Positions 1 through 27,640 of a stretch of 32,000 bases of DNA are shown piece after piece. The first letter of the stretch is position 1. Every line of letters begins with the position of its first letter. The stretch spans positions 1 through 32,000 of the forward strand of contig SHMX01000011.1 in assembly GCA_008080745.1 (NCBI GenBank), in the 5' to 3' direction. This stretch comes from Candidatus Thorarchaeota archaeon (GTDB taxonomy: Archaea; Asgardarchaeota; Thorarchaeia; Thorarchaeales; Thorarchaeaceae). The notes under the pieces are model-generated. The model ran no database searches and was not told the origin of the DNA. It was given only the letters and a program-made list of their open reading frames with translations. The translations under genes were made by a program, and so were the position numbers.

Positions 1-93
1 TCCCTGACCAGGACAGAGTTTCACCCAGTACCGTTGCCTGGGAGGACACCGCTCTGATGTCCAAGTTTGTCCATAAAACAATGAACGGTTTGA
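1..93. other. End of a putative structured non-coding element (runs off the left edge), related to the element at 19494-19810
   Basis: TGTCCA-agtt-TGTCCA at 58-73, then 10 nt and AACGGTT. TGACCAG (5-11) and GAGGAC (42-47) occur in the same order, and TGACCAG at nearly the same distance from the tandem, as in 19721-19807. Hairpin CCCAG/CTGGG at 24-42. GC is 35/60 in 1-60 versus 20/60 in 61-120. Confidence 0.5.
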
Positions 94-97
94 ATCA

Positions 98-203
98 ATG
101 GATAAAAGTCTAATTGGATGAGTTAATCACCTATGCTAGCTACCTAAATCCGTGACAGTTCAGTGTCAACAGTGTCCGCCACATCAACAAGCCTTTTATC
201 CAT
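98..203. promoter_or_regulatory. Divergent promoter region with mirror-image TATA-like boxes and a candidate operator
   Basis: ATGGATAAAAG (98-108) and CTTTTATCCAT (193-203) are exact reverse complements. TGACA-N6-TGTCA palindrome at 153-168 lies between them. Confidence 0.5.
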
Positions 204-245
204 CTATTTCTCACGAATCTTGTCCTCGAACGTGAGGGATAGCTA

Positions 246-1091
246 ATGACTGAAACTGCAGCTCCCGTCCTAAAACATCCTATGGCGAAATACATCCGTG
301 AAGATCGCCAACCATGGATATACTGCCCTGGTTGCTCTATCGGAATTGCTACTAACATGATTGCTCGAGCTATTGACAATCTTGGACTTGATATGAGCAA
401 GGTCGTCGTTGTATCTGGTATCGGATGCACTGGCCGTGTGTCTGGCTATTTCCAGACAGGAACCTATCACACCACTCATGGTCGTGCAATTGCTTTTGCC
501 GAAGGCGTCAAGATAGCCAATCCCGAACTAGAAGTCATCGTGGTTTCTGGTGATGGTGATCTCGCCGCAATCGGTGGTAACCACCTTATCCATGCTTGCA
601 GACGTAATATCGACCTAACTGTTGTATGTGTAAACAACTTCAATTATGGCATGACAGGAGGACAGTTTGGGCCCACTACGGAACATGAGAGGTATTCCCA
701 GACCAGTCCTAGGCCGATAGGCAATGTGGAACACCCATTCAACCTGGTGAAGTTGGCTGCATCATCTGGAGCGACTTTTGTGGCCAGATGGACAGCAATA
801 CAAGCTAGGCGAGCCACCCGTTCGATACAGAAAGGAATAGCCAAGGAAGGATTCTCGTTTATAGAAATTATAGGAGCTTGTCCCACAGCATATGGAAGAA
901 TGAACCGACTGGGTGATGGAGTTGGAATGCACAAACATCTTCTAGAGGTTGCGGAGATTCAGAACGGATTACCCCCACACGAGGCCGAATTGATTTATGA
1001 CGAGCGAATTGTCTGTGGAGAATTCGTAGACATAGTAAAACCAGAATACACAAGGGTCTTGAGAGAGAAGACCTCAAAGGTCAGGGAGTGA
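246..1091 (+). CDS. korB: 2-oxoacid:ferredoxin oxidoreductase beta subunit (TPP-binding)
   Basis: YCPGCS, SGIGC, HGRA, GDGD...NN TPP motif, YGMTGGQ and CPT motifs. Confidence 0.93.
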   Translation: MTETAAPVLKHPMAKYIREDRQPWIYCPGCSIGIATNMIARAIDNLGLDMSKVVVVSGIGCTGRVSGYFQTGTYHTTHGRAIAFAEGVKIANPELEVIVVSGDGDLAAIGGNHLIHACRRNIDLTVVCVNNFNYGMTGGQFGPTTEHERYSQTSPRPIGNVEHPFNLVKLAASSGATFVARWTAIQARRATRSIQKGIAKEGFSFIEIIGACPTAYGRMNRLGDGVGMHKHLLEVAEIQNGLPPHEAELIYDERIVCGEFVDIVKPEYTRVLREKTSKVRE

Positions 1092-1095
1092 AGAT

Positions 1096-1653
1096 ATGGG
1101 AAGATTCGAAGTACGGATTGGGGGATTCGGAGGACAAGGTGTTGTGACCATGGCAGTGGTCATGGGCGAGACCCTTTCATTATACGATAACAAATATTGT
1201 GTACAGACCCAGTCATACGGACCAGAGGCTAGAGGAGGAGCTAGTAAAAGTGAGGTAGTCATCTCTGATGAAGAGATCGATTATCCAAAGGTTCAGGAAC
1301 CAGACGTATTCATAGCTATGAGTAGAGCTGCATATCTTGAATACATAGATGGGCTGAAGGATGATGGAATCCTCATAATCGATCAAGATTTGGTCGACAT
1401 AGAGGGTGACCTCCCAGAAACAGTAACGGTCTACAAAGTACCAGCAACTCGAATTGCAGACAAGGATGTTGGAACCAAGCTTGCGACAAACGTTGTGATG
1501 TTGGGGGCCTTTGCTGCAATCACAGGACAGATATCAGTTGAGGGTCTTCGAGCACAGATTGAAGAACGTTGGCCAAGGTTCGTAAAGACCAACTTGCTGG
1601 CTCTTGATTTGGGGATGAAGGCTGGAAAAGAAGCCAAGGCCTCGCAAGAATAG
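1096..1653 (+). CDS. korC: 2-oxoacid:ferredoxin oxidoreductase gamma subunit
   Basis: IGGFGGQGV and SYGPEARGG motifs, N-x-V-M-L-G; starts 4 nt after korB. Confidence 0.92.
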   Translation: MGRFEVRIGGFGGQGVVTMAVVMGETLSLYDNKYCVQTQSYGPEARGGASKSEVVISDEEIDYPKVQEPDVFIAMSRAAYLEYIDGLKDDGILIIDQDLVDIEGDLPETVTVYKVPATRIADKDVGTKLATNVVMLGAFAAITGQISVEGLRAQIEERWPRFVKTNLLALDLGMKAGKEAKASQE

Positions 1654-1761
1654 ATGATTCCTCCTATCTCTGAGAGTCCATGTATTCCCCATCTTAGCAG
1701 AAGATAGATTGGTTATTAAAAAGCATAAAAGAGATATAGATGACAGACTCTATCTTTTGCC

Positions 1762-2208
1762 GTGTTAGGTATGAGTTCGTTCTGGTCTAAATGGATGTTC
1801 ATTATATCAATTATCATCAGTATCACAGGTTTTTGTTTCTGCGTGGTTTTCACATATCTCATTCCCCAGGTGCTGGAGGTCTTTTTCAAGGAGATAACGG
1901 GAATAGGTTTTGCCGAAATATCAGACAATCAATTACGATTCATGTTTCTTCTATCCGTTGTGATAGGAGCCACCATGATGGGGTGGGGAGTAATGCTGAT
2001 ACTACTGTGCTGTAGACTTGTTAGAGGAAGAGATGAATGGATATGGACGGTAATAGCAGTGGGAATCTTGACATGGTTTGTAGTAGATACCTCCCTCTCA
2101 TTCATCCTGGGTAGTATGCTTAATGTTGCATTGAACACGATCATTTTCCTTATGACATTGCCTCCACTTATCGCCAATAGAAAGGTGTTATTCAAAACCG
2201 TGAAATAG
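1762..2208 (+). CDS. Hypothetical membrane protein (about 4 TM segments)
   Basis: 148-aa ORF (GTG start, or ATG at 1771) with four hydrophobic stretches; fills the intergenic gap. Confidence 0.7.
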   Translation: MLGMSSFWSKWMFIISIIISITGFCFCVVFTYLIPQVLEVFFKEITGIGFAEISDNQLRFMFLLSVVIGATMMGWGVMLILLCCRLVRGRDEWIWTVIAVGILTWFVVDTSLSFILGSMLNVALNTIIFLMTLPPLIANRKVLFKTVK

Positions 2209-2273
2209 TGTGAACCATTTCAACTATGTCTTGACTGAATATTATTGGAATATAATAAAAAAAGAAGAGAAGA

Positions 2274-2292
2274 GTCGGGAACAGTTCCCGAC
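2274..2292 (-). terminator. Hairpin plus T-tract ending the hydrogenase operon
   Basis: Perfect inverted repeat GTCGGGAAC-A-GTTCCCGAC just past the stop at 2303, followed on the minus strand by TCTTCTCTTCTTTTTTT. Confidence 0.7.
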
Positions 2293-2302
2293 AATAGTAT
2301 TT

Positions 2303-2674
2303 CTAGTAGATGACCATGTCATCCCGACTTAGGTAAGCCATCTCGAATTCATCTGAGAGTTCCAAGACGTCTCTTGGACACGATTCCACACATTGGCCAC
2401 ATAGTAAGCATCTGTCAAAGTGGCAAATTGGGCGGAAACCAGTTCGAGTCTGTACATCTTCAGGTCTACATTCGATCATCTCGATTGCATCACTAGGGCA
2501 TACACGTTCACAAATCTTGCATCCAGTGCAATTATTGGGATTCTTGTAGACCCACTTCCCTCGAAGATCCGGTGGAACATTCAGGCCTTCCTTCGTGAAG
2601 GGATATATCACAGTAGCCTGCTTGGAACGTGCGCTTTTCAAAAGCTCTCTTTCCATTTTTCCTAGACTGGGCAT
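2303..2674 (-). CDS. Group 4 hydrogenase 2x[4Fe-4S] subunit (NuoI/EchF/HycF-like)
   Basis: Two CxxCxxCxxxCP motifs (CTGCKICERVCP, CLLCGQCVESCP); N-terminal T-x-x-YPF. Confidence 0.9.
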   Translation of the reverse strand: MPSLGKMERELLKSARSKQATVIYPFTKEGLNVPPDLRGKWVYKNPNNCTGCKICERVCPSDAIEMIECRPEDVQTRTGFRPICHFDRCLLCGQCVESCPRDVLELSDEFEMAYLSRDDMVIY

Positions 2675-2677
2675 ATT

Positions 2678-3778
2678 CTATACAACTCCTATAGCGGGAA
2701 ATACAAGATTCAGTACAATCTGAATCAGTAACATGTTAAATAATGCAATAGGTACCATGACCTTCCAACCAGCTCGGACAATCTGGTCAATTCGCCAACG
2801 AGCAAAGAGGGTCCTCATATTAGCAAGAACTAGAATTACCAAGGCGCTCTTAAACATAAACACAAGAGTGTAGTATAAGGCACCAAACCAATTGCTAGCC
2901 ATAAATAGACCAAACTCTTGGAAGATTGGAAGTGGAATCAACTCCAATAAGAACGGCCCACCAAGAAATAGTGTGGTTGCCATTCCAGCTCCAAAGACCA
3001 GAAGAATATCCTCTGCCATGTGAATCATAGCTAATTTCTTCCCACTGTACTCAACTTGCCATCCATGAACGATTTCGGTTTCTGCATGGCTTACATCAAA
3101 AGGTATCCGTTCTAACTCTGCTTGTAGAGAGATGATATATACTATGAACGGAATTATGAGTAACCATCCATAAGCCAATGATAGTCCAGAACCACCTCCA
3201 GTACCCAACATGGTATTCATGATAGTAGAGATGCTTAGACTTCCAGTAAGAATAGCTGGAGTGATAAGTGCAATTATGAGAGGAATCTCAAAACTGATCA
3301 AGAGCATTCCTGTACGAGCTGCCCCAGTTTGAGCATATGGACTTGACGAGAAATATCCACCAAGAACAATCAGGATAGCCATAAGAGTAGAAATGAAGAG
3401 AACAATCAGCAAGTCGCCTTCAAAACTGAGTATACCCTGTACACCTGGAGCAGGATTGAGATCAACAATTGGAAGGAACATGCAGAGAAGAATGCTAAGA
3501 ATAAGCATTATGACCGGTACTGCTGCAAAACTCCTCTTATCAGCACGTTTGGGTGTCAAGTCTTCTTTTCCTACTAGTTTTAGAAAGTCCGCCAGGGGCT
3601 GGAGTATCCCCCGCCAACCAGTGTGGAGAGGTCCCATTCTATTTTGTAAACGGGCATACACCTTTCTATCCATCCATTCCCATAGCAAAGCTAGAAATGT
3701 TATGAAAAAGATTCCAGGGAAGAAAAGAATCCAAAGTGCTGGGAATACCAATTCAGTCAATAGATTAATCTGCATCAT
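2678..3778 (-). CDS. Group 4 hydrogenase membrane subunit (NuoH/EchB/HycD-like)
   Basis: DRKVYARLQNRMGP, LQPLADFLKL, RIPFDVSHAETEI, EYSG and RWRIDQ motifs; about 8 TM; ATGA overlap with the upstream gene. Confidence 0.92.
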   Translation of the reverse strand: MMQINLLTELVFPALWILFFPGIFFITFLALLWEWMDRKVYARLQNRMGPLHTGWRGILQPLADFLKLVGKEDLTPKRADKRSFAAVPVIMLILSILLCMFLPIVDLNPAPGVQGILSFEGDLLIVLFISTLMAILIVLGGYFSSSPYAQTGAARTGMLLISFEIPLIIALITPAILTGSLSISTIMNTMLGTGGGSGLSLAYGWLLIIPFIVYIISLQAELERIPFDVSHAETEIVHGWQVEYSGKKLAMIHMAEDILLVFGAGMATTLFLGGPFLLELIPLPIFQEFGLFMASNWFGALYYTLVFMFKSALVILVLANMRTLFARWRIDQIVRAGWKVMVPIALFNMLLIQIVLNLVFPAIGVV

Positions 3779-5007
3779 GCCACCCTCCTTGGATTTTCAG
3801 CGTACCATTTGTTAGCTCGGACACGTAGAGTATCAAGTGTGACTAATTCCATAGACTCGTCTTTCGAGTCAACTATAGCAACACGATCGGTGCAACTGAA
3901 GCAGGGATCAATTGCTGCAAGAGTAATCGGTGCATCGGCAATATAGCCACCACGTAGGGTGTGAGCCATACTCACCCAGTTCGCATGGGTTGGGGCTCGA
4001 ATCTTCAATCGGTCTGGCTTGTCAGTTCCATTGGTGATGAGATAATGTATGCACTCGCCACGAGGAGCTTCATATCGAGCAAGAACCTCATTAGGTTGGA
4101 TACGAGGTCGTACACGTTCACGAATAGGCCCATCGGGTAAATTATTCAAGAGCCACCTACACATCTGAATTGACTGAATGGTCTCAAGAACTCGTACTAC
4201 TGCACGTCCTGCAATATCACAACGATCAGAGAGTATCATATCGAACTCTCCACTATCCCGAAGATTGACATAAGCCATGGTAGGATCATTGAAACGAACA
4301 TCTACAGGAACATTGCTTCCACGAGCAGTGGGTCCAACAGCTGAGGTGCTCTTGGCAACACTGGTGGGAAGCATTCCAACACCATTGATTCGGTCCCAGA
4401 AGGTCTTCTCATAGATTGCAGTATCTCTATAATATTCCATTCTTTCTTCGAGATGGTCAAGTCCTTTGAGGTGCCTCTGTTTTAAATCATCTGAAACATC
4501 TCTGCGGACACCACCAACTGTATTCATAGCGTAGTTCACACGATTACCACTGAGGTCTTCGAGCATATCCATAACCACTTCTCGGTCACGCCAAGTGTAC
4601 ATGAAAGCCGTATCAAAACCAACTTCGTGAAAGGCAACACCCAACCATAGGATATGTGAATGAATTCTTTCAAGTTCCCATGTAAGCGTTCTGATGAATT
4701 TAGCTCTATCGGGAATGTCTACCTCTGCTGCAAATTCGCTAGCTTGTGCGAAGTTTCCGTTATGGGTAGCTGAACAGATACCACAGATTCGTTCAACTAG
4801 ATAGAGTATCTGAGTGAAGGTCTTCTGTTCTGCCAGTTTCTCAATTCCACGATGGTTATATCCAATATTGACTTCTGCGTCAATTATCCTCTCTCCCTCA
4901 ACAGTTAGTTTGAACATCCCAGGTTCTTTCAGAGCGGGATGTTGAGGGCCGATTGGAATAGATACACGTGGAGGAGTAATTACTTTTCGTTTTTCAGATG
5001 AGGTCAT
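3775..5007 (-). CDS. Group 4 [NiFe]-hydrogenase large catalytic subunit (NuoD/EchE/HycE-like)
   Basis: GPQHP, HRGIEK, L1 motif ERICGIC, L2 motif DPCFSCTDR with a C-terminal extension, EAPRGE. Start moved to ATG 5007, which has an AGGAGG RBS; the ORF-track start at 5151 overlaps the upstream gene. Confidence 0.93.
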   Translation of the reverse strand: MTSSEKRKVITPPRVSIPIGPQHPALKEPGMFKLTVEGERIIDAEVNIGYNHRGIEKLAEQKTFTQILYLVERICGICSATHNGNFAQASEFAAEVDIPDRAKFIRTLTWELERIHSHILWLGVAFHEVGFDTAFMYTWRDREVVMDMLEDLSGNRVNYAMNTVGGVRRDVSDDLKQRHLKGLDHLEERMEYYRDTAIYEKTFWDRINGVGMLPTSVAKSTSAVGPTARGSNVPVDVRFNDPTMAYVNLRDSGEFDMILSDRCDIAGRAVVRVLETIQSIQMCRWLLNNLPDGPIRERVRPRIQPNEVLARYEAPRGECIHYLITNGTDKPDRLKIRAPTHANWVSMAHTLRGGYIADAPITLAAIDPCFSCTDRVAIVDSKDESMELVTLDTLRVRANKWYAENPRRVA

Positions 5008-18996: not shown

Positions 18997-19037
18997 TGAG
19001 GGGACCTAAGCCACCTCAATTCTGATACAGGAGAGCT

Positions 19038-19337
19038 CTAAACTCTCTTGTACTCTTTTATTTTCATCATTATTTTGTAACCATCAATTCCGATAGCACG
19101 CAAATAGGTATCAAGAGGAAGGATATCGCCATCTTCTGAACTAATACCATCAAGATATTCAGTTACAACTTGAGTGACTTCACGAATCAGTCGTTTTTCT
19201 TTTCCAAACAGTTTTGCAAAGAAGCCCCAATCAAATATTTTCATGTGTTTTTTCAGAGAAGATGAGTCTTGATCGGTCTTCTTCTGAACTTCATTGATGA
19301 TATAATCGAGAAGATCTTGTTTAGATGACATTGTCAA
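19038..19337 (-). CDS. Hypothetical helical protein (99 aa)
   Basis: Protein-like composition; sits between ahcY and a long intergenic region. No recognised motif. Confidence 0.65.
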   Translation of the reverse strand: MTMSSKQDLLDYIINEVQKKTDQDSSSLKKHMKIFDWGFFAKLFGKEKRLIREVTQVVTEYLDGISSEDGDILPLDTYLRAIGIDGYKIMMKIKEYKRV

Positions 19338-19493
19338 TGGGCATCACCGAATATTCAGACCATTCAAAACGATATAAGGAAACGTTGTTTCAAAGATTTC
19401 AAAAATAATTGTAAGTGTCAGCGTGGAACCGCTTGCCACCCAATCAAATGATAACTATGAAAGAACTCCTTCGATGGATTGTACCATAGGGTA

Positions 19494-19810
19494 TGCAACA
19501 GCTGATCAAAACGTGGACAAGCTTGGACATATATCAATTAACTCTTTGATATATTGACCTGTATACGGTATCCCCTGCAGCTCGGCTATCGGGAGTGTAT
19601 ACCTTGACCATCAGAAGAGGGGGGTTATTAGGAATCATGTCTAAGATAAGTATGCCGCCGTGAGTTGCACGGAGGCATAAAATGCCTGTGAAGAGGAAGT
19701 AAGACATCATCAGTCCTCTGTGACCAGTGATGCAGCCTCGATGAAGCAGGAACCAGACAGCAAATGAGGACTCCTGTCCACCTTTGTCCAAGTTCTGTGC
19801 AACGGCTGCA
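19494..19810. ncRNA. Putative structured ncRNA or MITE-like element bounded by imperfect inverted repeats
   Basis: 36-nt inverted repeats at 19494-19529 and 19775-19810 (26/36 complementary; TG...CA ends), each containing TGGACA-N4-TGGACA. Internal helices: 19529-37/19546-54, 19561-66/19597-602, 19651-62/19668-79, 19637-42/19702-07, 19712-18/19766-72. Interior 19561-19800 is 50% GC. Confidence 0.55.
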
Positions 19811-19929
19811 AATACAACAACACTCAGTATGCTGGTTACGATGCTCTCCATCATAGAAGAATATCAAAATGTCAACGAGCAAAGCACTTTTGAGGGAGAG
19901 AATAAAATATAGTTAATGAGGTTAGAAAT

Positions 19930-20181
19930 TTGGGAGAAAAGAAGATTGGTGAAATCTCACAATATTTTCATAACATAAGTGTAGCAGCGATTATACTCGA
20001 AGACGAACTGAAAGAAGGCGACCAAATACATATCAAAGGTACAACCACCGACTTAGTCCAAGAGGTTAAGTCCATGGAAATTGATCGGGAATCCGTTGAA
20101 AAAGGTACAAAGGGACAAGAGATAGCAATCAAAGTCAAAGATAGAGTTCGTGAGAATGATGAGGTATATCTCGTCGAATAG
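19930..20181 (+). CDS. Small beta-barrel protein (translation elongation factor-like / peptidase U32 C-terminal-like domain)
   Basis: KKIGEISQYF...ISVAAI...LKEGDQIHIKG...QEVKSMEID...GQEIAIKV...VRENDEVY pattern; TTG start with a GAGGT RBS. Confidence 0.8.
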   Translation: MGEKKIGEISQYFHNISVAAIILEDELKEGDQIHIKGTTTDLVQEVKSMEIDRESVEKGTKGQEIAIKVKDRVRENDEVYLVE

Positions 20182-20257
20182 ATAAAAGACTAGAACAAGT
20201 AGATAAGAAAGTTGAATAATAAAAGATCGAGGGAAGATAAACTTCCCTCTGCTACTT

Positions 20258-21907
20258 CTATAACATAGCAAATAGCACGCCTTGAGGGAGAATTAGCATT
20301 TGCAAAAGGAATGCTTGAAATAAGGCTGTGAAAATGGTTCTGTTTCCTAACCTTTGAATGATGTTTCCACCGACCATTACAAGAGCTAAAATCAAAAGGC
20401 CCTGAAGTGATCCTATCATTCCAGATGTGGAGCCCAAAGCATACCATAATCCAGTTAGGAAGAAGAAAGGTAAGAAACCAATCAAAGTGTTCCATAGCAA
20501 CAGCCGTGACCCCTCAACCTCACGTTTTAATGCAATCTGAAATTCAACTTGTCCAACGTAGAATCCAAATGTAGTGAATATTGTGAAAATGATCAGCCAG
20601 ATGAACCGTTCATTTATTGGAAAGATATAGTAAATACCAGATCGTGCAAAAACGACAGACCAGAGAATAATAGCTACCGCGATAAGCAGAGAAAGTAGAA
20701 ACTTTTTACTCGTCAAAGAGGATATGTTTAGATTTCGGTTCAATTGGAAAGTTCCTTCTGTCCCTCCCACTTTTCCTCTCCAATATAATAAAACAAACAA
20801 AAGACCATAGCTTCCGATGAATCCAACATAGACTATATTGAAGACGGGAATGCCAAGAGGAATCATGAAAAATAGCAGTGCCAGCAAAAGAAAGATAGGT
20901 ATAGCACCTAACCACATGACTAGTTTTGTTTTGAGAAATTTTCTTTCCTCAATTATGTCAATTCCATATTCTCCACGTCCAGAATCATAGGCACTCAGGA
21001 GAGGATCCGCAACTCCCAATAGCAGGAAGACACCAACAATACCCATGAACCAGAAGACTACTCGTAGCAGTGCAGAAATAGCAGGTCCACCTGGGACCGA
21101 CAAAGAAAGGGATTCTGCAATGAAATCTTTAGAGATATCTATTGCCTGGGGGTTATATACCTCATAGTTATGAAGGAGCCATGGGAGAACGACTAGTTCT
21201 CGAGAGTATGATGACGTACCGCCTTCTGTCAGATTATTGAGAAGAATATTTGCAGATTGAGGAGGTAAAATATCGTCCAAGCTTCCAATCAATAGAAGAA
21301 TATCAGTTGATGGATTTGAGCTATTCAAAGCCTGAACCCATTCGAGGGCAGCATCTTGAACACCTGTAAAGAATTCTGATTGTATATTTGTTGCCAGATT
21401 GACTTGTGCACCAAACAATACCAAGCCAGCAACAGAAGCTGTGTCTAAGACCGCAGCTTGGAGTGCAACACGGGCGCCCATACTATGACCAAAGATTATG
21501 ATATCAGAATCATCCAAGCCTGATAATGTCTTAAATTGTTCTTTCGCCTCTAAAGCCTGTAATGCAAGCCTATCAGTAGCGGCATTGTCAAATTCAAGGG
21601 CCCCTGGAGACCGTCCATGTCCCGAGAAATCAAATGTGAAGATATGAAGCCCCATCTGATGGTATTCGGTGACCAAGCTTCTCAATGCAGTCTGATCACT
21701 CCCAAAACCTTCCAATAGAAGAACACCAGAAGATATTGAGCCCTCATAATAAAGCCCTACGAGTAAATCACCATCTGAATCTGTAAATTGAACTTCTTGA
21801 GTAAGTGTAAGACCAGAGTCTATCGCTACAAGTCCAACAACAGAACTGACAGCTAACAATCCACCAATGAGGGAAATTAGAAATAAGGTACGTTTGGAAA
21901 TGTTCAT
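20258..21907 (-). CDS. Second membrane-anchored alpha/beta hydrolase with a C-terminal multi-TM domain
   Basis: N-terminal TM, EGFG, FDFSGHG, GHSMG nucleophile, GSLDD Asp, LLHNYE His, about 8 TM. Likely start ATG 21907. Confidence 0.8.
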   Translation of the reverse strand: MNISKRTLFLISLIGGLLAVSSVVGLVAIDSGLTLTQEVQFTDSDGDLLVGLYYEGSISSGVLLLEGFGSDQTALRSLVTEYHQMGLHIFTFDFSGHGRSPGALEFDNAATDRLALQALEAKEQFKTLSGLDDSDIIIFGHSMGARVALQAAVLDTASVAGLVLFGAQVNLATNIQSEFFTGVQDAALEWVQALNSSNPSTDILLLIGSLDDILPPQSANILLNNLTEGGTSSYSRELVVLPWLLHNYEVYNPQAIDISKDFIAESLSLSVPGGPAISALLRVVFWFMGIVGVFLLLGVADPLLSAYDSGRGEYGIDIIEERKFLKTKLVMWLGAIPIFLLLALLFFMIPLGIPVFNIVYVGFIGSYGLLFVLLYWRGKVGGTEGTFQLNRNLNISSLTSKKFLLSLLIAVAIILWSVVFARSGIYYIFPINERFIWLIIFTIFTTFGFYVGQVEFQIALKREVEGSRLLLWNTLIGFLPFFFLTGLWYALGSTSGMIGSLQGLLILALVMVGGNIIQRLGNRTIFTALFQAFLLQMLILPQGVLFAML

Positions 21908-21981
21908 CCTTGATTCACTAATAAAGCAGATACAACACACTATATGTCTATTACCTAATCAGGTACAGATAATTCCCTTGG

Positions 21982-22446
21982 TCATAATTTTGTTATTTCA
22001 CCAACATCTAAGCCCATAGGGCGAAAGCCTTTGTGGATACTATCAATCCAATATTCATATTCTTCTCTGGAGCGGAGCCCCTCTACCCTTGAAACCATCA
22101 TCCCTTTTTTGAAAGCAACAACAACTGGAACACCAAGTATATTGAACTCTTCCTGAACACCTTCAACTTCGTCTACATTGACTTTTCCGAAATATACACG
22201 CAAAGCAAATTCTTCCGCCAGGTCTTCCAAGATTGGAAGAAGACGTTCACAGAATGGACAATGAGAACGATAGAAGATAAGAACAGATGTCTTTATTTTT
22301 CGGATAAGATTCATGAAGGATGGTTCACGCATATCATGGACTTTTCCATCTGCGAGAGGCTCTTTTGAGGTTTCAATGGATGTTTCAAGCTTCTTCGCTA
22401 AAGAATCAAAATTTGATGCCTCGATTTTTTTAGGCAAAATGCTCAC
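21982..22446 (-). CDS. Thioredoxin-family protein
   Basis: CPFC redox motif, KVNVDE and cis-Pro motif GVP; about 40-aa N-terminal extension. Confidence 0.88.
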   Translation of the reverse strand: MSILPKKIEASNFDSLAKKLETSIETSKEPLADGKVHDMREPSFMNLIRKIKTSVLIFYRSHCPFCERLLPILEDLAEEFALRVYFGKVNVDEVEGVQEEFNILGVPVVVAFKKGMMVSRVEGLRSREEYEYWIDSIHKGFRPMGLDVGEITKL

Positions 22447-22630
22447 CTCTATAATTCTAGCACTAAGCTACATTAGTTTTTTGTGAGGTCACTTGAAGGG
22501 ATTAAAGAAGCAGAGTTATTCAATATATTTGTTTCAATGAATGTATTGCAGTGTTCAAAGATATGGGATCGGATGGGAGTAGTATAGAGTTCCAGTACTT
22601 TTTATAGGTAGTAAATTCGCTTTGGTAGTT

Positions 22631-23035
22631 ATGAGCACCACCTCAAGCGCAAGAACGATATTGGTAATACTATTAGCAAGTTTTGGATTGCCATTGCTTT
22701 TTCTCCTCTTTCTCTTCGAGTACTTGGAAATCTCAGAATACGTATTGCCCATTTTGCTACCAATATTCGGATTTACATTACTAATGCTTATCGTCATATT
22801 CGGATTCATCTTTGGAGCTATCAAATGGGCATCAGGGAAAGCAGGTACTATGCAATACCAACATTCTCCACGCATTACAACCACAATGCATCATGCTCAA
22901 AGAAAGTTCTACTTGATTCCAGTAAACTGTCCACATTGCCAAAGTGAAATCGAGTTAGGGAGAGCAGAATGGCGAGATGACCGGACCATCATTTGCTCCC
23001 GATGTTTTACCGACATTGAGATTCAGAAGACGTAA
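22631..23035 (+). CDS. Small membrane protein with a C-terminal zinc ribbon
   Basis: Two TM segments, then CPHC-x17-CSRC. Confidence 0.75.
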   Translation: MSTTSSARTILVILLASFGLPLLFLLFLFEYLEISEYVLPILLPIFGFTLLMLIVIFGFIFGAIKWASGKAGTMQYQHSPRITTTMHHAQRKFYLIPVNCPHCQSEIELGRAEWRDDRTIICSRCFTDIEIQKT

Positions 23036-23104
23036 CAATATGCGATATTGGGAAAAAGAAGAGAAGGTATCTGTATAGAACATACAGATACATACCAGTA
23101 TTAA

Positions 23105-24052
23105 TCAGCCGACTCCAACAACTTCAAAGTCATCGAAATCTTCAGGACCTGAATTGCGCTTCGCCAACATCACTACAACGCCAATGATGACTATAGCACC
23201 AACTACACCGATACCAACAATCATGATTTGTGAAGCGTCCATCACCAAGGGAGGTGGTGTGTCGCTTGTTGTGGTAGCAATTCCGCCAGATCCCTCGTTA
23301 ATATCAATACCATAAGAAATAGTGACTGTGTCGTCTTGGTCTAGAGCTGAAAATACACAATACCATGTTCCAGAGGTGGGGACCTCAAATGGACCGATGT
23401 CAGCCTGATGGTAATCATCCTTTATTGCAAAACCTGTAGCACTGCCACCAGTCGTCCAAGCATTGTAGTTACTTTCATCACAGATGAAAAAATAGATTCC
23501 ATCCGATGAGAACCAAGTTGAAAAATGACCGTCTATTTCATCACCAGCATCGAGATTGAATGAGGTATACCACCATTCATCGGTCTCAAGAGTTTCTCCA
23601 TACCTAGTATAATCCCAGTTTGATGGGTTATAATAAGGAGAGTTGTCATCATCTAGATCCACACCAATATCCACAGTTACAGTGGTAGAACCTTCAGCAT
23701 TACTGAATACGATATGCCAAGTATTAGTGGTCTGCACAGTAAAGGAGATACCCATGGTGTGAATTCCTTCACTTAGCTCATATACGGAGGCACTTCTTCC
23801 GGCTTCCCACTCGCCCATATTGTAATCGTCAGCTATGAAGAAGTCAAGACCCTGCGTTTCAGAATGGGTTTCAAAAAAGCCAGAGATATCTGTACCAGAT
23901 GAGAGGGATCCCGAAACATCGTACCATTCACCCGCATTAAGAATAACATTTGTGTATTCGTTGTCCCAATCTGACGCAGCTACGTGCTGAGTCGAACTTG
24001 ACGAAATGAGAATGAAAGAGAAAAACAACAAAATCAAGAATTTTTTATCCAC
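23105..24052 (-). CDS. Type I membrane protein with two tandem beta-sandwich repeats (GOLD/emp24-like or PPC-like)
   Basis: Signal peptide, two alignable repeats of about 90 aa (W..L..GEW / FFI.D..N..W..G.SA / F.V.T..TW..VFS), Thr/Pro linker, C-terminal TM and a short tail. Confidence 0.75.
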   Translation of the reverse strand: MDKKFLILLFFSFILISSSSTQHVAASDWDNEYTNVILNAGEWYDVSGSLSSGTDISGFFETHSETQGLDFFIADDYNMGEWEAGRSASVYELSEGIHTMGISFTVQTTNTWHIVFSNAEGSTTVTVDIGVDLDDDNSPYYNPSNWDYTRYGETLETDEWWYTSFNLDAGDEIDGHFSTWFSSDGIYFFICDESNYNAWTTGGSATGFAIKDDYHQADIGPFEVPTSGTWYCVFSALDQDDTVTISYGIDINEGSGGIATTTSDTPPPLVMDASQIMIVGIGVVGAIVIIGVVVMLAKRNSGPEDFDDFEVVGVG

Positions 24053-24200
24053 AGTAAATTCACCTTTGTAGGCTGTAAATAGGAAAGTAGATACAGAAAT
24101 AGATTTTGGATACGTGGAAGAAAACCATAACTGAGAGGAGCTTTCTTTTTGAGGCTAATTCAAACACGTAAGAGGTATTAATGACAAAATCCATTGATTC

Positions 24201-26429
24201 ATGGTTGCAATGAGTGAAGTTCCACCTGTATGGCAGATGATAAAGGAAGCAATTGATGCGCTCGATGGACGGGCTACTCATGCGGAGATACGTGAATACA
24301 TTCAGACGAAATATGGCGATATTTCGGATGCGATGATTAAGACCGAGATAAATTTCTGTTCCGTCAATAGTCCAACAAGAATATACGGTCCAGAGAATCA
24401 AGACCCACGAAGTACTAGGAATCCAGATGATAGATACGACCTTTTGTATCGTGTAGAACGTGGAACTGTAATGAAATATGACCCATATATTCATGGATAC
24501 TGGGAGATAGCCCAGGACTCACAGGGAAGAATGGTTGTCAGACAAGATGTGATGGACGATGCAGATGTATTCCTTGAAACTAAAGACCCAGAAGAATTAC
24601 GCAGAATAGGAGACCGTCTTGAAGAGCGACGAAGATATGTTGAGGCGGAGCTTGTCTATAGGATTGCCATCGATTTGGATGAAGAATACCATGCAGCATG
24701 GAACAATCTTGCTCTAGTTTTGGAAAAGCAAGGACGATATGAGGAGGCAAAAGAAGCCTACGAAAAAGCAATTTCTTTGAATCCGAATGACCCTGCAACT
24801 TGGAGTAATCTTGCAGATGCTCTAATTGAAATGAAGGCATTCTCTGAAGCAGAGAAAGCCTACAAGAAGGCACTGGAACTAGACAAGGAGAACCCGGTAA
24901 CATGGAATAACTACGGTCTTGCCCTTGAAGAACAGGGATTTTATGAGGAGGCAGAACGGGCTTTTCGAACATCTGTAAGAATCAATCCAGAGGATGCAGT
25001 TGCTTGGGGAAACCTTGGTGACCTTTTAGAACGTGATGACAGACTTGAAGAGGCCGAACATGCATATCGACGCTCCGTTGAATTAGATCCAGATAATGCA
25101 GACATCTGGTATATGTTAGGATGGACACTAGAACAGATGGACCGTTATGATGAGGCAATTGAAGCATATCGCTGGTCATCAGACATCGACCCAAATGATA
25201 TCGAGATTTGGAAGAAGTTAGGAGAGGTTCTGCAATATGTAAATCAATACGCAGAGGCATCCGATGCATATAGGAGAGCAATTAGAATAGAACCGAATGA
25301 TTCCAAATTGTGGAGGTCATTTGGTTGGGTGCAACTGATGGTCAACGAATTGAATACTGCTGAAAAATCATTTCTCAAAGCTATCAGTTACGAGTCGAAT
25401 GATGTGATGTCCCGAATCGGAATTGCAGTCATCCAAACAGAGGGGGAACAGTATAGTAGAACTATAAAGACATGTGAACAAATACTATCAATTGAGCCCG
25501 ATAATCCATATGGGTTGGTATTTCGTGCTATAGCCAAATGGAAACAAGGAGATATGGACGAATCTGAAAGAATGCTACATCATGCAACCGACCTTCATCC
25601 CGATTTTTATCTTGGATGGAGACACTTGGGAATATTCTACCAAGAAAAAGAAAGCTACTCAGAAGCAGAAGATTCACTCAGAATGGCCCTGGATCTTGAA
25701 CCTACCTATGCAGATTTGCACTATGAATTAGGAGTTATTCTTCTGGAACTTGATCAAAAAGAGGAGGCACTCAAAGAATTTCAAAGAGCGGTTAAATTGG
25801 ATGACGGATTCGTCCAGGCATGGGCAAGATTAGCCCTCATAGCAGACGAACTATCAAAATCAACCATAATGGAGTCAGCCAAACAGAAATACAACGAACT
25901 GTCGAAAGAGGGTAAAAAGACACGTTCACCAGTTCTAATTCCACCAGAAATAGCTGACTACGATGATGCGGAAGAGGTAGAAGAAATAGAAACTAGAAAA
26001 CGAACTCGACGAACTTCACTTCAAACAGAAATAGATGAATTGGATTCATCCCAGACATTCACGACCCAGCTAATGGAACTGTTTGTGGACTGGTTAAAAA
26101 GAAAGGGGGTCAGTTCTAGGCAAGAGCCCGATCATGTTGATGTAATATTCCAAACAGAGAATCATACTTATGCTGTAGAGGTGAAAGCACTACGAAATCC
26201 AATAGATGATATTCGGGATGCGGTGGGTCGGCTGCTTCAGTACAATTTACTACCGGAAAGACGTCCTGCGGATATCTGGATTATCCTAACAGATGAAAAA
26301 CCTGCAGATGCAGGACTTGTATGGATTCATAATCTAAGACAGAGAATGGGTAAAGAAAGTTTTCCAGTGTATCTGGGATGGCAAGAAGGTTCCGAGTTTA
26401 TTTTTGATGAGATAGAATTGAATCTTTAG
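24201..26429 (+). CDS. N-terminal HTH-like domain plus 12-13 TPRs plus a C-terminal PD-(D/E)XK nuclease-like domain
   Basis: 34-aa TPR periodicity (W-x-x-LG/LA...A...Y..A...P). C-terminus HVDVIF...AVEVK...IRDAVGRLLQY...IWIIL. Confidence 0.8.
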   Translation: MVAMSEVPPVWQMIKEAIDALDGRATHAEIREYIQTKYGDISDAMIKTEINFCSVNSPTRIYGPENQDPRSTRNPDDRYDLLYRVERGTVMKYDPYIHGYWEIAQDSQGRMVVRQDVMDDADVFLETKDPEELRRIGDRLEERRRYVEAELVYRIAIDLDEEYHAAWNNLALVLEKQGRYEEAKEAYEKAISLNPNDPATWSNLADALIEMKAFSEAEKAYKKALELDKENPVTWNNYGLALEEQGFYEEAERAFRTSVRINPEDAVAWGNLGDLLERDDRLEEAEHAYRRSVELDPDNADIWYMLGWTLEQMDRYDEAIEAYRWSSDIDPNDIEIWKKLGEVLQYVNQYAEASDAYRRAIRIEPNDSKLWRSFGWVQLMVNELNTAEKSFLKAISYESNDVMSRIGIAVIQTEGEQYSRTIKTCEQILSIEPDNPYGLVFRAIAKWKQGDMDESERMLHHATDLHPDFYLGWRHLGIFYQEKESYSEAEDSLRMALDLEPTYADLHYELGVILLELDQKEEALKEFQRAVKLDDGFVQAWARLALIADELSKSTIMESAKQKYNELSKEGKKTRSPVLIPPEIADYDDAEEVEEIETRKRTRRTSLQTEIDELDSSQTFTTQLMELFVDWLKRKGVSSRQEPDHVDVIFQTENHTYAVEVKALRNPIDDIRDAVGRLLQYNLLPERRPADIWIILTDEKPADAGLVWIHNLRQRMGKESFPVYLGWQEGSEFIFDEIELNL

Positions 26430-27640
26430 TGTGTTCGAAGAGCAGCCAGAGGTACATCACGAACATAGCTTTGGTCTGTCTTCCATCCAATCTCATCATT
26501 GTGATTCTCATGATAGAAATAATAGGTAAAAGCTGAGTCAAACTGCATCTGGAGAACAGACACATTGTCGGCATGTTCCCATATAAACTCTGAAAATTCT
26601 GGAGCAAAGGAGGGAGACGAGGTAGTGAACAAAACAAAACTATCCTCGTCCGATACCAATTGACACTCGAAGGGAACAAGCTTGGATCGGACGAAATGAT
26701 GTAATGTCGAATTGTTCAATTCTGAATTCGGTCGGAAATAGCCAATAATCGCTTGTGGATATGTCAAATCGAATACAGACCGATCATAATAGAGTTGTTC
26801 ATCAGGGGCAACAGACTTGCGGATTTTCTTTACTCTGCGTGAAATAGTGGTCGGGTCACGATTATGATGATCTCCAAGATCTTTCTTAGGAATCTTGGAA
26901 TTGATGGTCAATTCTCGAAGAAGTAATTTGTCAAGAGAATCAAGGGAAACTTTCTTCTTCAATTCAAGAGCGGGAAGAGATGGAATCTCTTTTTCGTGTT
27001 CAATCATTTTGTCCCAGATAATATCAAGGGCACTCTGTTTTAATCCCGGTTCAGATTTCAGGGCAGATTCAATCTTCCATGTGTTTGACTTCTTATCCCA
27101 TTGACTAAAGTCAGCGGGAATTTTCGACGTATACAGTGAATTCTGAGTCTGAAAACTCTCGAAAAGACCCTGTTTCTGAAGGTCTTCAAACAGAGATTTC
27201 ATTTCATTTTCAGTTGCTGGAGGGATATCGAACTGAGCATAAAAAACAGCCCCACGCGAATATGCTACCGTGCGATAATGAGTGTATGGATGCTCATCAC
27301 ACAACAACTTCAATTTGTTCAAGCTTTTCCTATCAGGAACCTGATGGAAGAATACATGCTGACGCCTCAGACCGAGCTCATGTGGGAGGTAGACTACCTC
27401 TATCTCTGTCTGTATGCGTTTTCCAAGAATTGGATCTGTTATTTCCTTATCAACACGAAGGAAACCTTTCTCCTTCATCTGAAGCAGCCTAGTACGTACT
27501 GTTTCAATAGACACGGAAATCTCAGAGCTTGTATTCACAGCTGATTTAATCTCGTGAAGTGTAGATGATGGGTTATTCTTTAACTGAAGAAAGATTTCAT
27601 AATCCTTCATATCGAATTCATAACCCCTCCAAGCAACCAT
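26426..27640 (-). CDS. Twin winged-HTH (Lrp/AsnC-like) regulator
   Basis: HTH1 STLHEIK...SIETVRTRLLQMKEKG; HTH2 LDSLDKLLLRELTINSK...DPTTISRRVKKI. Its stop codon overlaps that of the TPR gene. Confidence 0.7.
   Translation of the reverse strand: MVAWRGYEFDMKDYEIFLQLKNNPSSTLHEIKSAVNTSSEISVSIETVRTRLLQMKEKGFLRVDKEITDPILGKRIQTEIEVVYLPHELGLRRQHVFFHQVPDRKSLNKLKLLCDEHPYTHYRTVAYSRGAVFYAQFDIPPATENEMKSLFEDLQKQGLFESFQTQNSLYTSKIPADFSQWDKKSNTWKIESALKSEPGLKQSALDIIWDKMIEHEKEIPSLPALELKKKVSLDSLDKLLLRELTINSKIPKKDLGDHHNRDPTTISRRVKKIRKSVAPDEQLYYDRSVFDLTYPQAIIGYFRPNSELNNSTLHHFVRSKLVPFECQLVSDEDSFVLFTTSSPSFAPEFSEFIWEHADNVSVLQMQFDSAFTYYFYHENHNDEIGWKTDQSYVRDVPLAALRTH

Follow-up and report, generated by a model that had tools for sequence, protein, structure and literature searches.

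The stretch of DNA analysed here (the window) comprises 32,000 nucleotides of contig SHMX01000011.1 from a “Candidatus Thorarchaeota” archaeon and carries, on the forward strand at positions 24201 to 26429, a complete coding sequence for a protein of 742 amino acids (P0001) that ends with the stop codon TAG at 26427 to 26429. Three modules are joined in this one chain: a DUF7669 winged helix, 13 tetratricopeptide repeats (TPRs), and a PD-(D/E)XK nuclease fold. The full-length protein was found in G000 and G001 only, within one genus. The G001 orthologue has 741 amino acids, is 79.6% identical, and shares the start residues MVAMSE. Overall dN/dS between the two is ~0.03, dN is low in every module, and, judged from this pair of sequences, the gene is under strong purifying selection. 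A TATTAAT motif read from the sequence at positions 24176 to 24182 (forward strand), ~22 nucleotides upstream of the ATG, is a possible archaeal TATA-like box and hence a candidate promoter element. A pattern scan of the protein found no Walker A pattern, and no NACHT, NB-ARC, or AAA domain was among the Pfam matches shown. A search of sequencing runs for the gene listed no RNA run; the two DNA runs were marine-sediment metagenomes, perhaps representing the source sample.

The N-terminal module (amino acids 9 to 115; positions 24225 to 24545, forward strand) comprises the winged helix (amino acids ~9 to 95) and a beta-hairpin extension (amino acids 101 to 115). It matches Pfam DUF7669 (PF24706) over amino acids 9 to 89 (E value of 3e-14, 53.4 bits versus a gathering cutoff of 23), and its AF2 model (pLDDT 89) has the topology H1-b1-H2-H3-b2-b3 of a winged helix. 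All 50 top structural matches to this model in a VIA search were winged helices, including the cullin WHB domain (Z 7.3) and histone H5 (Z 7.1, rmsd 1.9 Å); these middling Z values support the predicted fold class only. An HTH-type accessory domain of restriction-type nucleases had been proposed for this region by an earlier, sequence-only reading, and both the Pfam match and the model bear this out. A DUF7669 profile search returned 141 relatives, and partner domains were taken from the 120 listed. Almost all of these carry NucS_C or HNH; a few have PF27257 or AAA domains or lack any further listed domain. DUF7669 is also fused to HNH_2 and BglII domains in Atlas clusters. The presumed reader of the thorarchaeal protein, DUF7669 by its Pfam match, is none of SRA, EVE/PUA, YTH, Mrr_N, or McrB_N. 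A literature search on DUF7669 found nothing relevant.

The TPRs span amino acids 130 to 571 (positions 24588 to 25913, forward strand) in a continuous 34-amino-acid register, and the 13 units agree with the 12 or 13 anticipated previously. Pfam TPR_1 matched with an E value of 1e-68 in 8 to 10 stretches, while a self-built HMM picked up ten of the 13 units: repeats 2 to 7 are canonical, repeat 8 is weak (i-E 0.017), and the three degenerate repeats (9, 10, and 13) were missed. The winged helix and TPRs 1 to 7 are 89 to 92% identical between the two orthologues despite saturation of synonymous sites, which does not suggest a sensor engaged in an arms race. The array is followed by a charged linker (amino acids 572 to 620; positions 25914 to 26060, forward strand), in which the peptide RSPVLIPPEIADYD, identical in the two aligned orthologues, precedes the acidic stretch EEVEEIE. 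Complex prediction for the TPR region (amino acids 125 to 575) with the linker and nuclease (amino acids 576 to 742) gave a score of 0.01, which provides no answer and is uninformative either way.

The C-terminal domain (amino acids 621 to 737; positions 26061 to 26411, forward strand) belongs to a family without a Pfam model. Neither its sequence alone nor a profile of 119 rows matched anything in Pfam or the PDB, and the protein had no Pfam match to NucS_C (PF01939) at E values of up to 10. The AF2 model of the domain (pLDDT 95.3) has the order a-bbb-a-b-a-bb, with helices at residues 2 to 20 and 53 to 69 and strands at residues 25 to 27, 34 to 37, 42 to 48, and 78 to 83 (domain numbering). 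Ranks 1 to 29 of the VIA search (Z ≥6.6) were all PD-(D/E)XK proteins, including AF1548 (Z 9.8), XisH (9.0), PaqCI (8.6), NucS (8.6), and McrC (8.3). The top Foldseek matches were MspJI (the best; E value of 2.7e-3, probability of 1.0), YaeQ, XisH, Hjc, and AF1548. Alignment of the nuclease family with DUF7669-linked NucS_C-type domains by hhalign gave a probability of 81% and an E value of 1.2e-5, over 48 columns only, with D, ExK, and GQxxxY in register. The modelled structure thus places the domain in the PD-(D/E)XK (restriction endonuclease-like) superfamily, a fold on which AF2, Foldseek, and VIA agree, and the earlier suggestion of a NucS/Mrr/McrC-like domain with a D...EVK motif is upheld by the model and by its NucS and McrC matches.

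An exhaustive representative search for relatives of this domain yielded 142 clusters (50% identity), and the resulting alignment has 119 rows. The putative catalytic residues are conserved in these homologues: E642 (codon at 26124 to 26126), D647 (26139 to 26141), and E660 (26178 to 26180) are each present in 118/119 rows and K662 (26184 to 26186) in 119/119. In the AF2 model, D647 lies just before beta2 and E660-V-K662 is on beta3. Residues conserved throughout the family, across ~140 clusters, are E, D, ExK, R, and QxxxY. In the thorarchaeal protein, the helix that follows motif III (positions 26214 to 26243, forward strand) contains R672, R677 (26229 to 26231), Q680, and Y681 and reads A-V-G-R677-L-L-Q-Y681, compared with GQLLEY in the family. 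The tyrosine of QxxxY is kept (Y681; Y in 119/119), but its glutamine, found in 118/119 rows, is replaced by R677. The arginine at the usual Q of AxGQL, already noticed in the sequence-only reading, is therefore real, and it is the sole such change among the 119 aligned members. Two other near-invariant positions are altered (E680Q and D705G); G705 is unique in a column where D or E makes up 98% of the 119 rows, and both R677 and G705 are fixed in the two species of the genus. R672, Y681, and N682 are intact, the first two being family-invariant positions. In EcoR124I, the analogous glutamine-to-lysine change, Q179K, left no detectable cleavage, and Q179A shifted the activity towards nicking (PMC2475608). 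On this analysis, Q677R raises doubt that the thorarchaeal protein would be fully competent in catalysis.

The nuclease domain is at or near the C terminus in all 142 clusters, and the N termini vary. Most relatives share, by BLAST grouping, an unnamed N-terminal domain of ~200 amino acids, with the motif CWNxxxWxxPxG...EEWNF, that is fused elsewhere in the Atlas to HNH_2, HNH, and NOV_C; other N-terminal partners are EVE (3 of 122), TPR (4), and LRR (1). Outside this protein, both end modules are, by domain composition, virtually confined to proteins that unite a reader and a nuclease in a single chain. The TPR-bearing members form one clade (SH-aLRT 98 in a quick IQ-TREE tree). The same layout is found in P0007, with DUF7669, two or three TPRs, and then the nuclease, and in P0077, with one or two or no TPRs. 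The array, unusually long at 13 repeats, is a lineage-specific insert, and the TPRs are considered dispensable for the basic enzyme because pairs of winged helix and nuclease exist with few or no TPRs.

Distribution is patchy rather than that of a universal housekeeping gene: 9 of 61 related genomes carry the nuclease domain, and DUF7669 is present in 9 of 301 genomes sampled from the phylum. The nuclease family is found mainly in Acidobacteriota, which have a type of 300 to 350 amino acids, with some archaea, and a family-pattern scan of IMG/VR viral contigs returned no relative. The PADLOC model for the Lamassu effector LmuA (PDLC03853) matched 11/122 family relatives at an E value of ≤1e-3 (best, 6.6e-9), and in P0018, the one relative checked, the match falls on the nuclease domain (model positions 520 to 612 of 655). 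These sequence matches suggest a link to defence.

The gene is solitary and accessory and lies in a variable region. A gene for a 404-amino-acid HTH protein and that for AdoHcyase are adjacent in G007 and 7.4 kb apart in the present genome, where the gap contains a miniature IS and the nuclease gene. Functional coupling to this downstream HTH gene was considered and rejected, as its orthologues (44 to 51% identity) occur in many genera without the nuclease. No methyltransferase is present among the neighbours in the window, as had been noted before, and neither are HerA, NurA, or, in Pfam and PADLOC scans, recognised defence genes. At 58 homologue loci, 68 flanking genes included no conserved neighbour family, and methyltransferases were not among the recurrent families. 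P0007 adjoins HerA (DUF87) and NurA, and the G016 homologue adjoins a HerA-like open reading frame. The earlier reading is partly borne out: its three domain calls were right, but the specific mechanism it proposed, a TPR-gated nuclease activated by a viral protein, gains no direct support. PADLOC models matched the protein only through its TPRs, and the surrounding genes do not form a defence island.

Proteins of ~260 amino acids that combine DUF7669 with NucS_C (annotated as endonuclease NucS domain-containing or DUF91) and proteins of ~381 amino acids that combine it with HNH (some annotated as 5-methylcytosine-specific restriction protein A) likewise carry the winged helix and then a nuclease in a single chain. 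Their DUF7669 domains are 33 to 51% identical to that of the thorarchaeal protein, and the NucS_C-type fusions have the same D, ExK, and GQxxxY motif order. Unlike these proteins, the thorarchaeal one has 13 TPRs (~440 amino acids) between the modules, and its nuclease is from a different sequence family and has R for the Q of QxxxY. The modification-dependent type IV and type IIM enzymes MspJI, AspBHI, DpnI, and Mrr also unite a reader and a PD-(D/E)XK domain in one chain with no cognate methyltransferase; AspBHI matches the C-terminal domain with a VIA Z value of 6.5, and DpnI pairs its PD-(D/E)XK domain with a winged helix. The domain order of the thorarchaeal protein differs from theirs, however, as does the presence of a TPR insert; there is no detectable sequence similarity, and its presumed reader is distinct from SRA, EVE, and the other known readers of modified bases. 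NucS/EndoMS of P. abyssi (PDB 2vld; Z 8.6, rmsd 3.2 Å, 100 residues) shares the RecB-like core, D, ExK, and QxxxY, but the thorarchaeal protein lacks the NucS N-terminal domain, has an accessory rather than repair-like distribution, and carries R in place of Q.

Avs proteins resemble the thorarchaeal protein in that one polypeptide carries both TPR-type repeats and an effector nuclease, and also in the proposed logic leading from sensing to cutting. The nuclease of the latter is C-terminal rather than N-terminal, however, an extra winged helix is present, and there is no STAND or other P-loop NTPase, so that both the missing P-loop and the consequent difference from Avs were correctly recognised in the earlier reading. 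An Avs or STAND identity was rejected, with no Walker A pattern or PADLOC Avs match in the protein and no NTPase among the Pfam matches shown. A Lamassu identity was also rejected, as the protein itself has no LmuA match and Pfam and PADLOC found no SMC-type (LmuB-like) partner among its neighbours. A literature search combining Asgard, TPR, and restriction found nothing relevant.

The comparisons with relatives favour a place among solitary, type IV-like combinations of reader and nuclease, in line with the second option of the earlier reading, that the protein may target modified DNA. The protein is best explained, with a probability of about 0.5, as a stand-alone, restriction-like DNA endonuclease that needs no methyltransferase and belongs to an archaeal accessory genome, with a TPR insert that is regulatory or serves as a scaffold. 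The winged helix would bind DNA and choose the target, and the NucS/RecB-like PD-(D/E)XK domain would cut or nick it via E642, D647, E660, and K662. The 13-TPR solenoid, most likely a protein-binding platform, would control or assemble the enzyme, either by associating with itself or through a bound protein of the host or of an invader. Such an enzyme would probably function in conflict with foreign DNA.

The substitutions in the nuclease domain could instead reflect a catalytically attenuated derivative, in which Q677R, E680Q, and D705G have produced a nickase or a DNA-binding-only module and the protein, instead of cutting both strands, serves as a scaffold or regulator whose TPRs are anchored to DNA. 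The uniqueness and fixation of R677 and G705 and the loss of cleavage or tendency to nick in the EcoR124I mutants are in keeping with this, but the metal-binding and general-base set (E642, D647, E660, and K662) is intact together with R672, Y681, and N682, an arginine could still contact phosphate, and the domain is under purifying selection, although selection alone need not imply catalysis; such attenuation is considered unlikely. A role as a housekeeping or repair nuclease of the structure-specific NucS/Hjc type, docked by its TPRs to replication or repair machinery such as HerA-NurA, is less probable again and indeed very unlikely. The structural matches include NucS and Hjc, there is profile similarity to NucS_C-type domains, and the HerA and NurA genes beside P0007 and the HerA-like gene at the G016 locus could point to DNA-end processing. 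Restriction of the full protein to one genus, the sporadic occurrence of both end modules, and a variable region beside a miniature IS, with neighbours that are not conserved and include no HerA or NurA in the window, weigh against such a role.

The TPRs might also make the protein an NTPase-free sensor-effector, with the nuclease held inactive until a viral protein binds and then guided by the winged helix to degrade DNA, either directly in defence or in abortive infection. In favour of this, TPR arrays bind proteins, the family has a supported clade in which they are repeatedly paired with the nuclease, the gene stands alone and belongs to the accessory genome, and the strictly conserved linker peptide could occupy the TPR groove. 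This mechanism is nevertheless improbable, given that the protein has no STAND or other NTPase and only TPR-driven PADLOC matches, that its TPRs differ little between the orthologues and give no hint of diversifying, that the winged helix and nuclease occur with one, two, or no TPRs in P0077, and that DUF7669 linked to other nuclease domains has no TPRs at all. A version in which the TPR ligand is a viral or host protein, or else the conserved linker peptide of the protein itself, and its binding licenses an NTPase-independent, winged-helix-guided nuclease of Asgard-type archaea, with Q677R tuning the latter for nicking or a special substrate, would amount to the logic of Avs with the STAND ATPase left out; it seems quite improbable.

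Prokaryotes have no simpler innate immune effectors than enzymes that combine reader and nuclease in one chain, and such enzymes also supply DNA tools, for example, modification-dependent cutters. The thorarchaeal locus defines the invariant residues of a PD-(D/E)XK family of ~140 clusters at 50% identity that has no Pfam model, and it provides further evidence for DUF7669 as a general-purpose targeting module shared by nucleases of at least four unrelated folds. Its own contribution is an architecture with a long TPR array between reader and cutter. If this array is merely a spacer or oligomerisation device, the protein would simply add one more unremarkable example to the solitary restriction-like nucleases. 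If it gates the nuclease, the protein would represent a minimal nuclease that senses proteins with no need of an ATPase, and this in the archaeal lineage discussed as the closest to eukaryotes.

The gene at window positions 24201-26429 (+) is a single ORF whose 742-aa product, P0001, is acidic (pI 4.6) and contains no long hydrophobic stretch and, in a sequence scan, no Walker A motif. Its orthologue in a genome of the same genus (G001) has 741 aa and the identical start residues, MVAMSE. The sequence-only reading had described an N-terminal helical or HTH domain, 12-13 TPRs and a PD-(D/E)XK nuclease, and all three modules were recovered, as a DUF7669 match, 13 TPR units and a predicted PD-(D/E)XK fold, respectively.

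Residues 9-89 match DUF7669 (PF24706) in Pfam (E 3e-14; 53 bits versus a cut-off of 23), and the N-terminal module also has a weak Pfam match to linker histone. The AF2 model of residues 1-125, from a 64-row DUF7669 domain alignment (pLDDT 89; element order H10-20, b24-26, H27-38, H43-53, b82-86/b89-92), has a predicted winged-helix topology followed by an additional hairpin at 101-115. Foldseek matches of the module are weak (best E 0.08); winged helices form the majority of the compact-domain rows, besides many GyrA/topoisomerase rows. All 50 rows of an exhaustive VIA search were winged helices, including cullin WHB (Z 7.3), histone H5 (Z 7.1, rmsd 1.9 A over 66 residues) and, further down, Fur, MCM, forkhead and Z-alpha domains. 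These Z values are middling and thus establish the fold class, not the function. Almost all of 120 listed DUF7669 relatives combine the domain with NucS_C (PF01939; proteins of ~260 aa) or HNH (~381 aa), some of the latter annotated as McrA-like, and a few have PF27257, AAA domains or no other listed domain. ESM Atlas clusters add fusions to HNH_2 and BglII, and two archaeal relatives of the same phylum consist of DUF7669 and a NucS-type domain. This variety of nuclease partners suggests that DUF7669 behaves as a targeting module swapped among nuclease folds.

The C-terminal domain has no sequence match in Pfam, NCBIfam or PDB, and precomputed annotations from a newer Pfam release place no domain on the C-terminus of the homologue P0007 either. 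Residues 596-742, searched exhaustively by phmmer against 1.84 billion representatives, retrieved 142 homologue clusters (best E 5e-23). The match covers ~115 residues and is located at or close to the C-terminal end in all of them; the listed proteins are 63 to 584 aa long, the majority 200-580. In a 119-row alignment of the family (A2; P0001 numbering), K662, R672 and Y681 are invariant, and E642, D647, E660, G676, the motif Q and N682 are at least 97% conserved. The AF2 model based on A2 (pLDDT 95.3; order a-bbb-a-b-a-bb) places D647 immediately ahead of beta2, E660-x-K662 on beta3, and R672, residue 677 and Y681 on the helix after beta3. The best Foldseek matches are the MspJI nuclease domain, YaeQ, XisH, Hjc and AF1548 (E ~3e-3, probability up to 1.0), and VIA returned AF1548 (Z 9.8), XisH (9.0), PaqCI (8.6), NucS (8.6) and McrC (8.3), followed by Cdn1, Can2, Card1, NucC, FokI and AspBHI. 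When A2 was compared by hhalign with the NucS_C-type domains attached to DUF7669, the D, ExK and GQxxxY motifs aligned (probability 81%, E 1.2e-5). Conserved residues, modelled fold, structural matches and profile alignment together indicate a predicted PD-(D/E)XK nuclease of the RecB/NucS-like QxxxY type, from a family matched by no Pfam model. The PADLOC LmuA model PDLC03853 matched 11 of 122 homologues (best E 6.6e-9) and did not match P0001 itself; in P0018, the sole relative where the match was located, it falls on the nuclease domain.

P0001 is alone among the 119 aligned sequences in carrying R677 in place of the motif Q. It also has Q680 where 108 rows have E, and G705 where 117 have D or E; all three residues are common to the G001 orthologue. 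In the RecB-type motif of EcoR124I HsdR, Q179A halved the rate of first-strand cleavage and left DNA mostly nicked, and cleavage by Q179K was undetectable (PMC2475608). By analogy, the basic R677 may weaken or alter catalysis, although the metal-binding and lysine residues are intact. Between P0001 and the G001 orthologue (Nei-Gojobori), dS is saturated and dN is low in the winged helix (0.037), TPRs 1-7 (0.073), TPRs 8-13 (0.20) and the nuclease domain (0.21), with an overall dN/dS of ~0.03, and every module has therefore been kept by selection.

Pfam TPR models match P0001 with E values down to 1e-68, and the 13 units run at 34-residue spacing in unbroken register from residue 130 to 571. 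A self-HMM built from six of the units finds 10 of the 13; units 9, 10 and 13 are degenerate. Within the linker (window 25914-26060, aa 572-620), the peptide RSPVLIPPEIADYD is the same in the G001 orthologue, whereas the remainder has diverged. Next to this peptide comes an acidic EEVEEIE stretch, reminiscent of the EEVD peptides that TPR clamps bind. The linker peptide may serve as a ligand of the TPR groove, in cis or in trans.

The full-length protein was found only in the source genome, an archaeal MAG, and in G001. Of 61 related genomes, 9 contain the nuclease domain, and DUF7669 is present in 9 of 301 genomes from the phylum, with one copy of each in the source genome. Marine-sediment metagenomes, possibly the source sample, are the only sequencing runs found to contain the window. 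Across 185,579 species genomes, 58 nuclease-family loci were detected, most of them in Acidobacteriota and the rest in Proteobacteria, Chloroflexota, Patescibacteria, Krumholzibacteriia and archaea, Thorarchaeota MAGs among them; a search of IMG/VR viral contigs with the family pattern gave no relatives. Among the 68 genes immediately flanking these loci, no neighbour family recurs beyond shared synteny; UvrC is present 3 times, integrase twice and IrrE twice, and methyltransferases are absent from the recurrent families.

Few Pfam domains accompany the nuclease in 122 full-length homologues (TPRs in 4, EVE in 3, LRR in 1, DUF7669 in 1). When the sequences preceding the nuclease domain were grouped by local BLAST, 94 homologues joined in one component with a common unnamed N-terminal domain of ~200 aa (motif CWNxxxWxxPxG...EEWNF). 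In the ESM Atlas, this domain is also fused to HNH_2, HNH and NOV_C nucleases, which again suggests an interchangeable reader, and it is a candidate for a previously undescribed DNA-reader domain. The domain, with the motif in the form CWNxxxWxxPxG...GFxxEEWNF, occupies the N-terminal ~200 aa of P0011 and most other family homologues; another homologue, P0012, has weak PADLOC PDC-S02 matches (E 0.007-0.008) across its first ~125 residues. In a quick ML tree, P0001 lies within an 11-row clade (SH-aLRT 98) that holds all five TPR-bearing rows and also rows with the majority N-domain, indicating that domains were shuffled inside the clade.

The closest architectural relative is P0007 (409 aa; Thorarchaeota MAG record), in which 2-3 TPRs accompany DUF7669 and the nuclease domain. 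In the region 1-4206 of its JGI contig (L089), its gene is divergent from a HerA (DUF87)-NurA pair, and a 134-aa HNH-like ORF comes after it. P0077 (ENA contig, L088, 8001-8945) combines DUF7669 and about one TPR with the nuclease domain; family similarity ends beyond the LIDEKP motif, a sign that the C-terminus may be frameshifted or decayed. Its 120-kb contig, mainly small genes without Pfam matches plus two dCMP-deaminase-domain genes, is possibly a mobile or viral element. At L010 (G120:C122, 959-2128), a truncated 80-aa DUF7669 ORF, closely P0001-like in its first 50 residues, lies directly upstream of two small ORFs resembling an antitoxin (RHH-like) and PIN-like toxin pair. A 313-aa archaeal homologue at L004 (G016:C165, 1477-2418, -) has a different N-terminal domain, possibly PUA/SRA-like. 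It is flanked by a HerA-like ATPase ORF on one side and, on the other, by an ORF carrying a DPPFG-type N6/N4 DNA methyltransferase motif; it is the only homologue seen adjoining a methyltransferase.

In the window, P0001 is encoded between a divergent 315-aa gene upstream and a convergent gene for a 404-aa double-HTH protein downstream (26426-27640, -; AsnC-type HTH at aa 233-272, the second near aa 15-54), the stop codon of the latter gene overlapping that of the P0001 gene. A tie to either neighbour was rejected; orthologues of the 404-aa gene (44-51% identity) are widespread in nuclease-free genera of the family, with several paralogues per genome. None of the neighbours matches a specific PADLOC defence model. 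In G007, the order is subtilase, a 188-aa gene, the 404-aa gene, ~430 bp and AdoHcyase, whereas 7.4 kb separate the latter two genes in the window. This variable segment (18997-26425), arranged in common with G001, contains a putative miniature IS607-type element, an alpha/beta hydrolase, a thioredoxin, small ORFs, the 315-aa gene and the P0001 gene.

The P0001 gene is accessory, partnerless and under purifying selection, and both end modules of its product are of the sort used by solitary reader-plus-nuclease enzymes. P0001 is most economically read as a stand-alone conflict nuclease of restriction-like type, in which the winged helix would select DNA, the PD-(D/E)XK domain would cut or nick it, and the TPR array would be an inserted platform for protein interactions that regulate the enzyme, assemble it with itself or recruit partners. 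The sequence-only reading had proposed a TPR-gated nuclease, possibly activated by a viral protein; this is improbable, as P0001 contains no NTPase, its TPRs are strongly conserved, and the winged-helix-plus-nuclease unit occurs elsewhere without TPRs. Given Q677R, P0001 could, with low probability, be a nickase or a derivative that only binds, and the HerA or HerA-NurA genes adjoining two archaeal relatives point faintly to a repair-linked role.

As a stand-alone conflict nuclease, P0001 would be of a kind already known, the single-chain winged-helix or reader-plus-nuclease enzyme. What is new is a nuclease family matched by no Pfam model, a 13-TPR insert separating reader from cutter with no ATPase, and the unique replacement of the motif Q.
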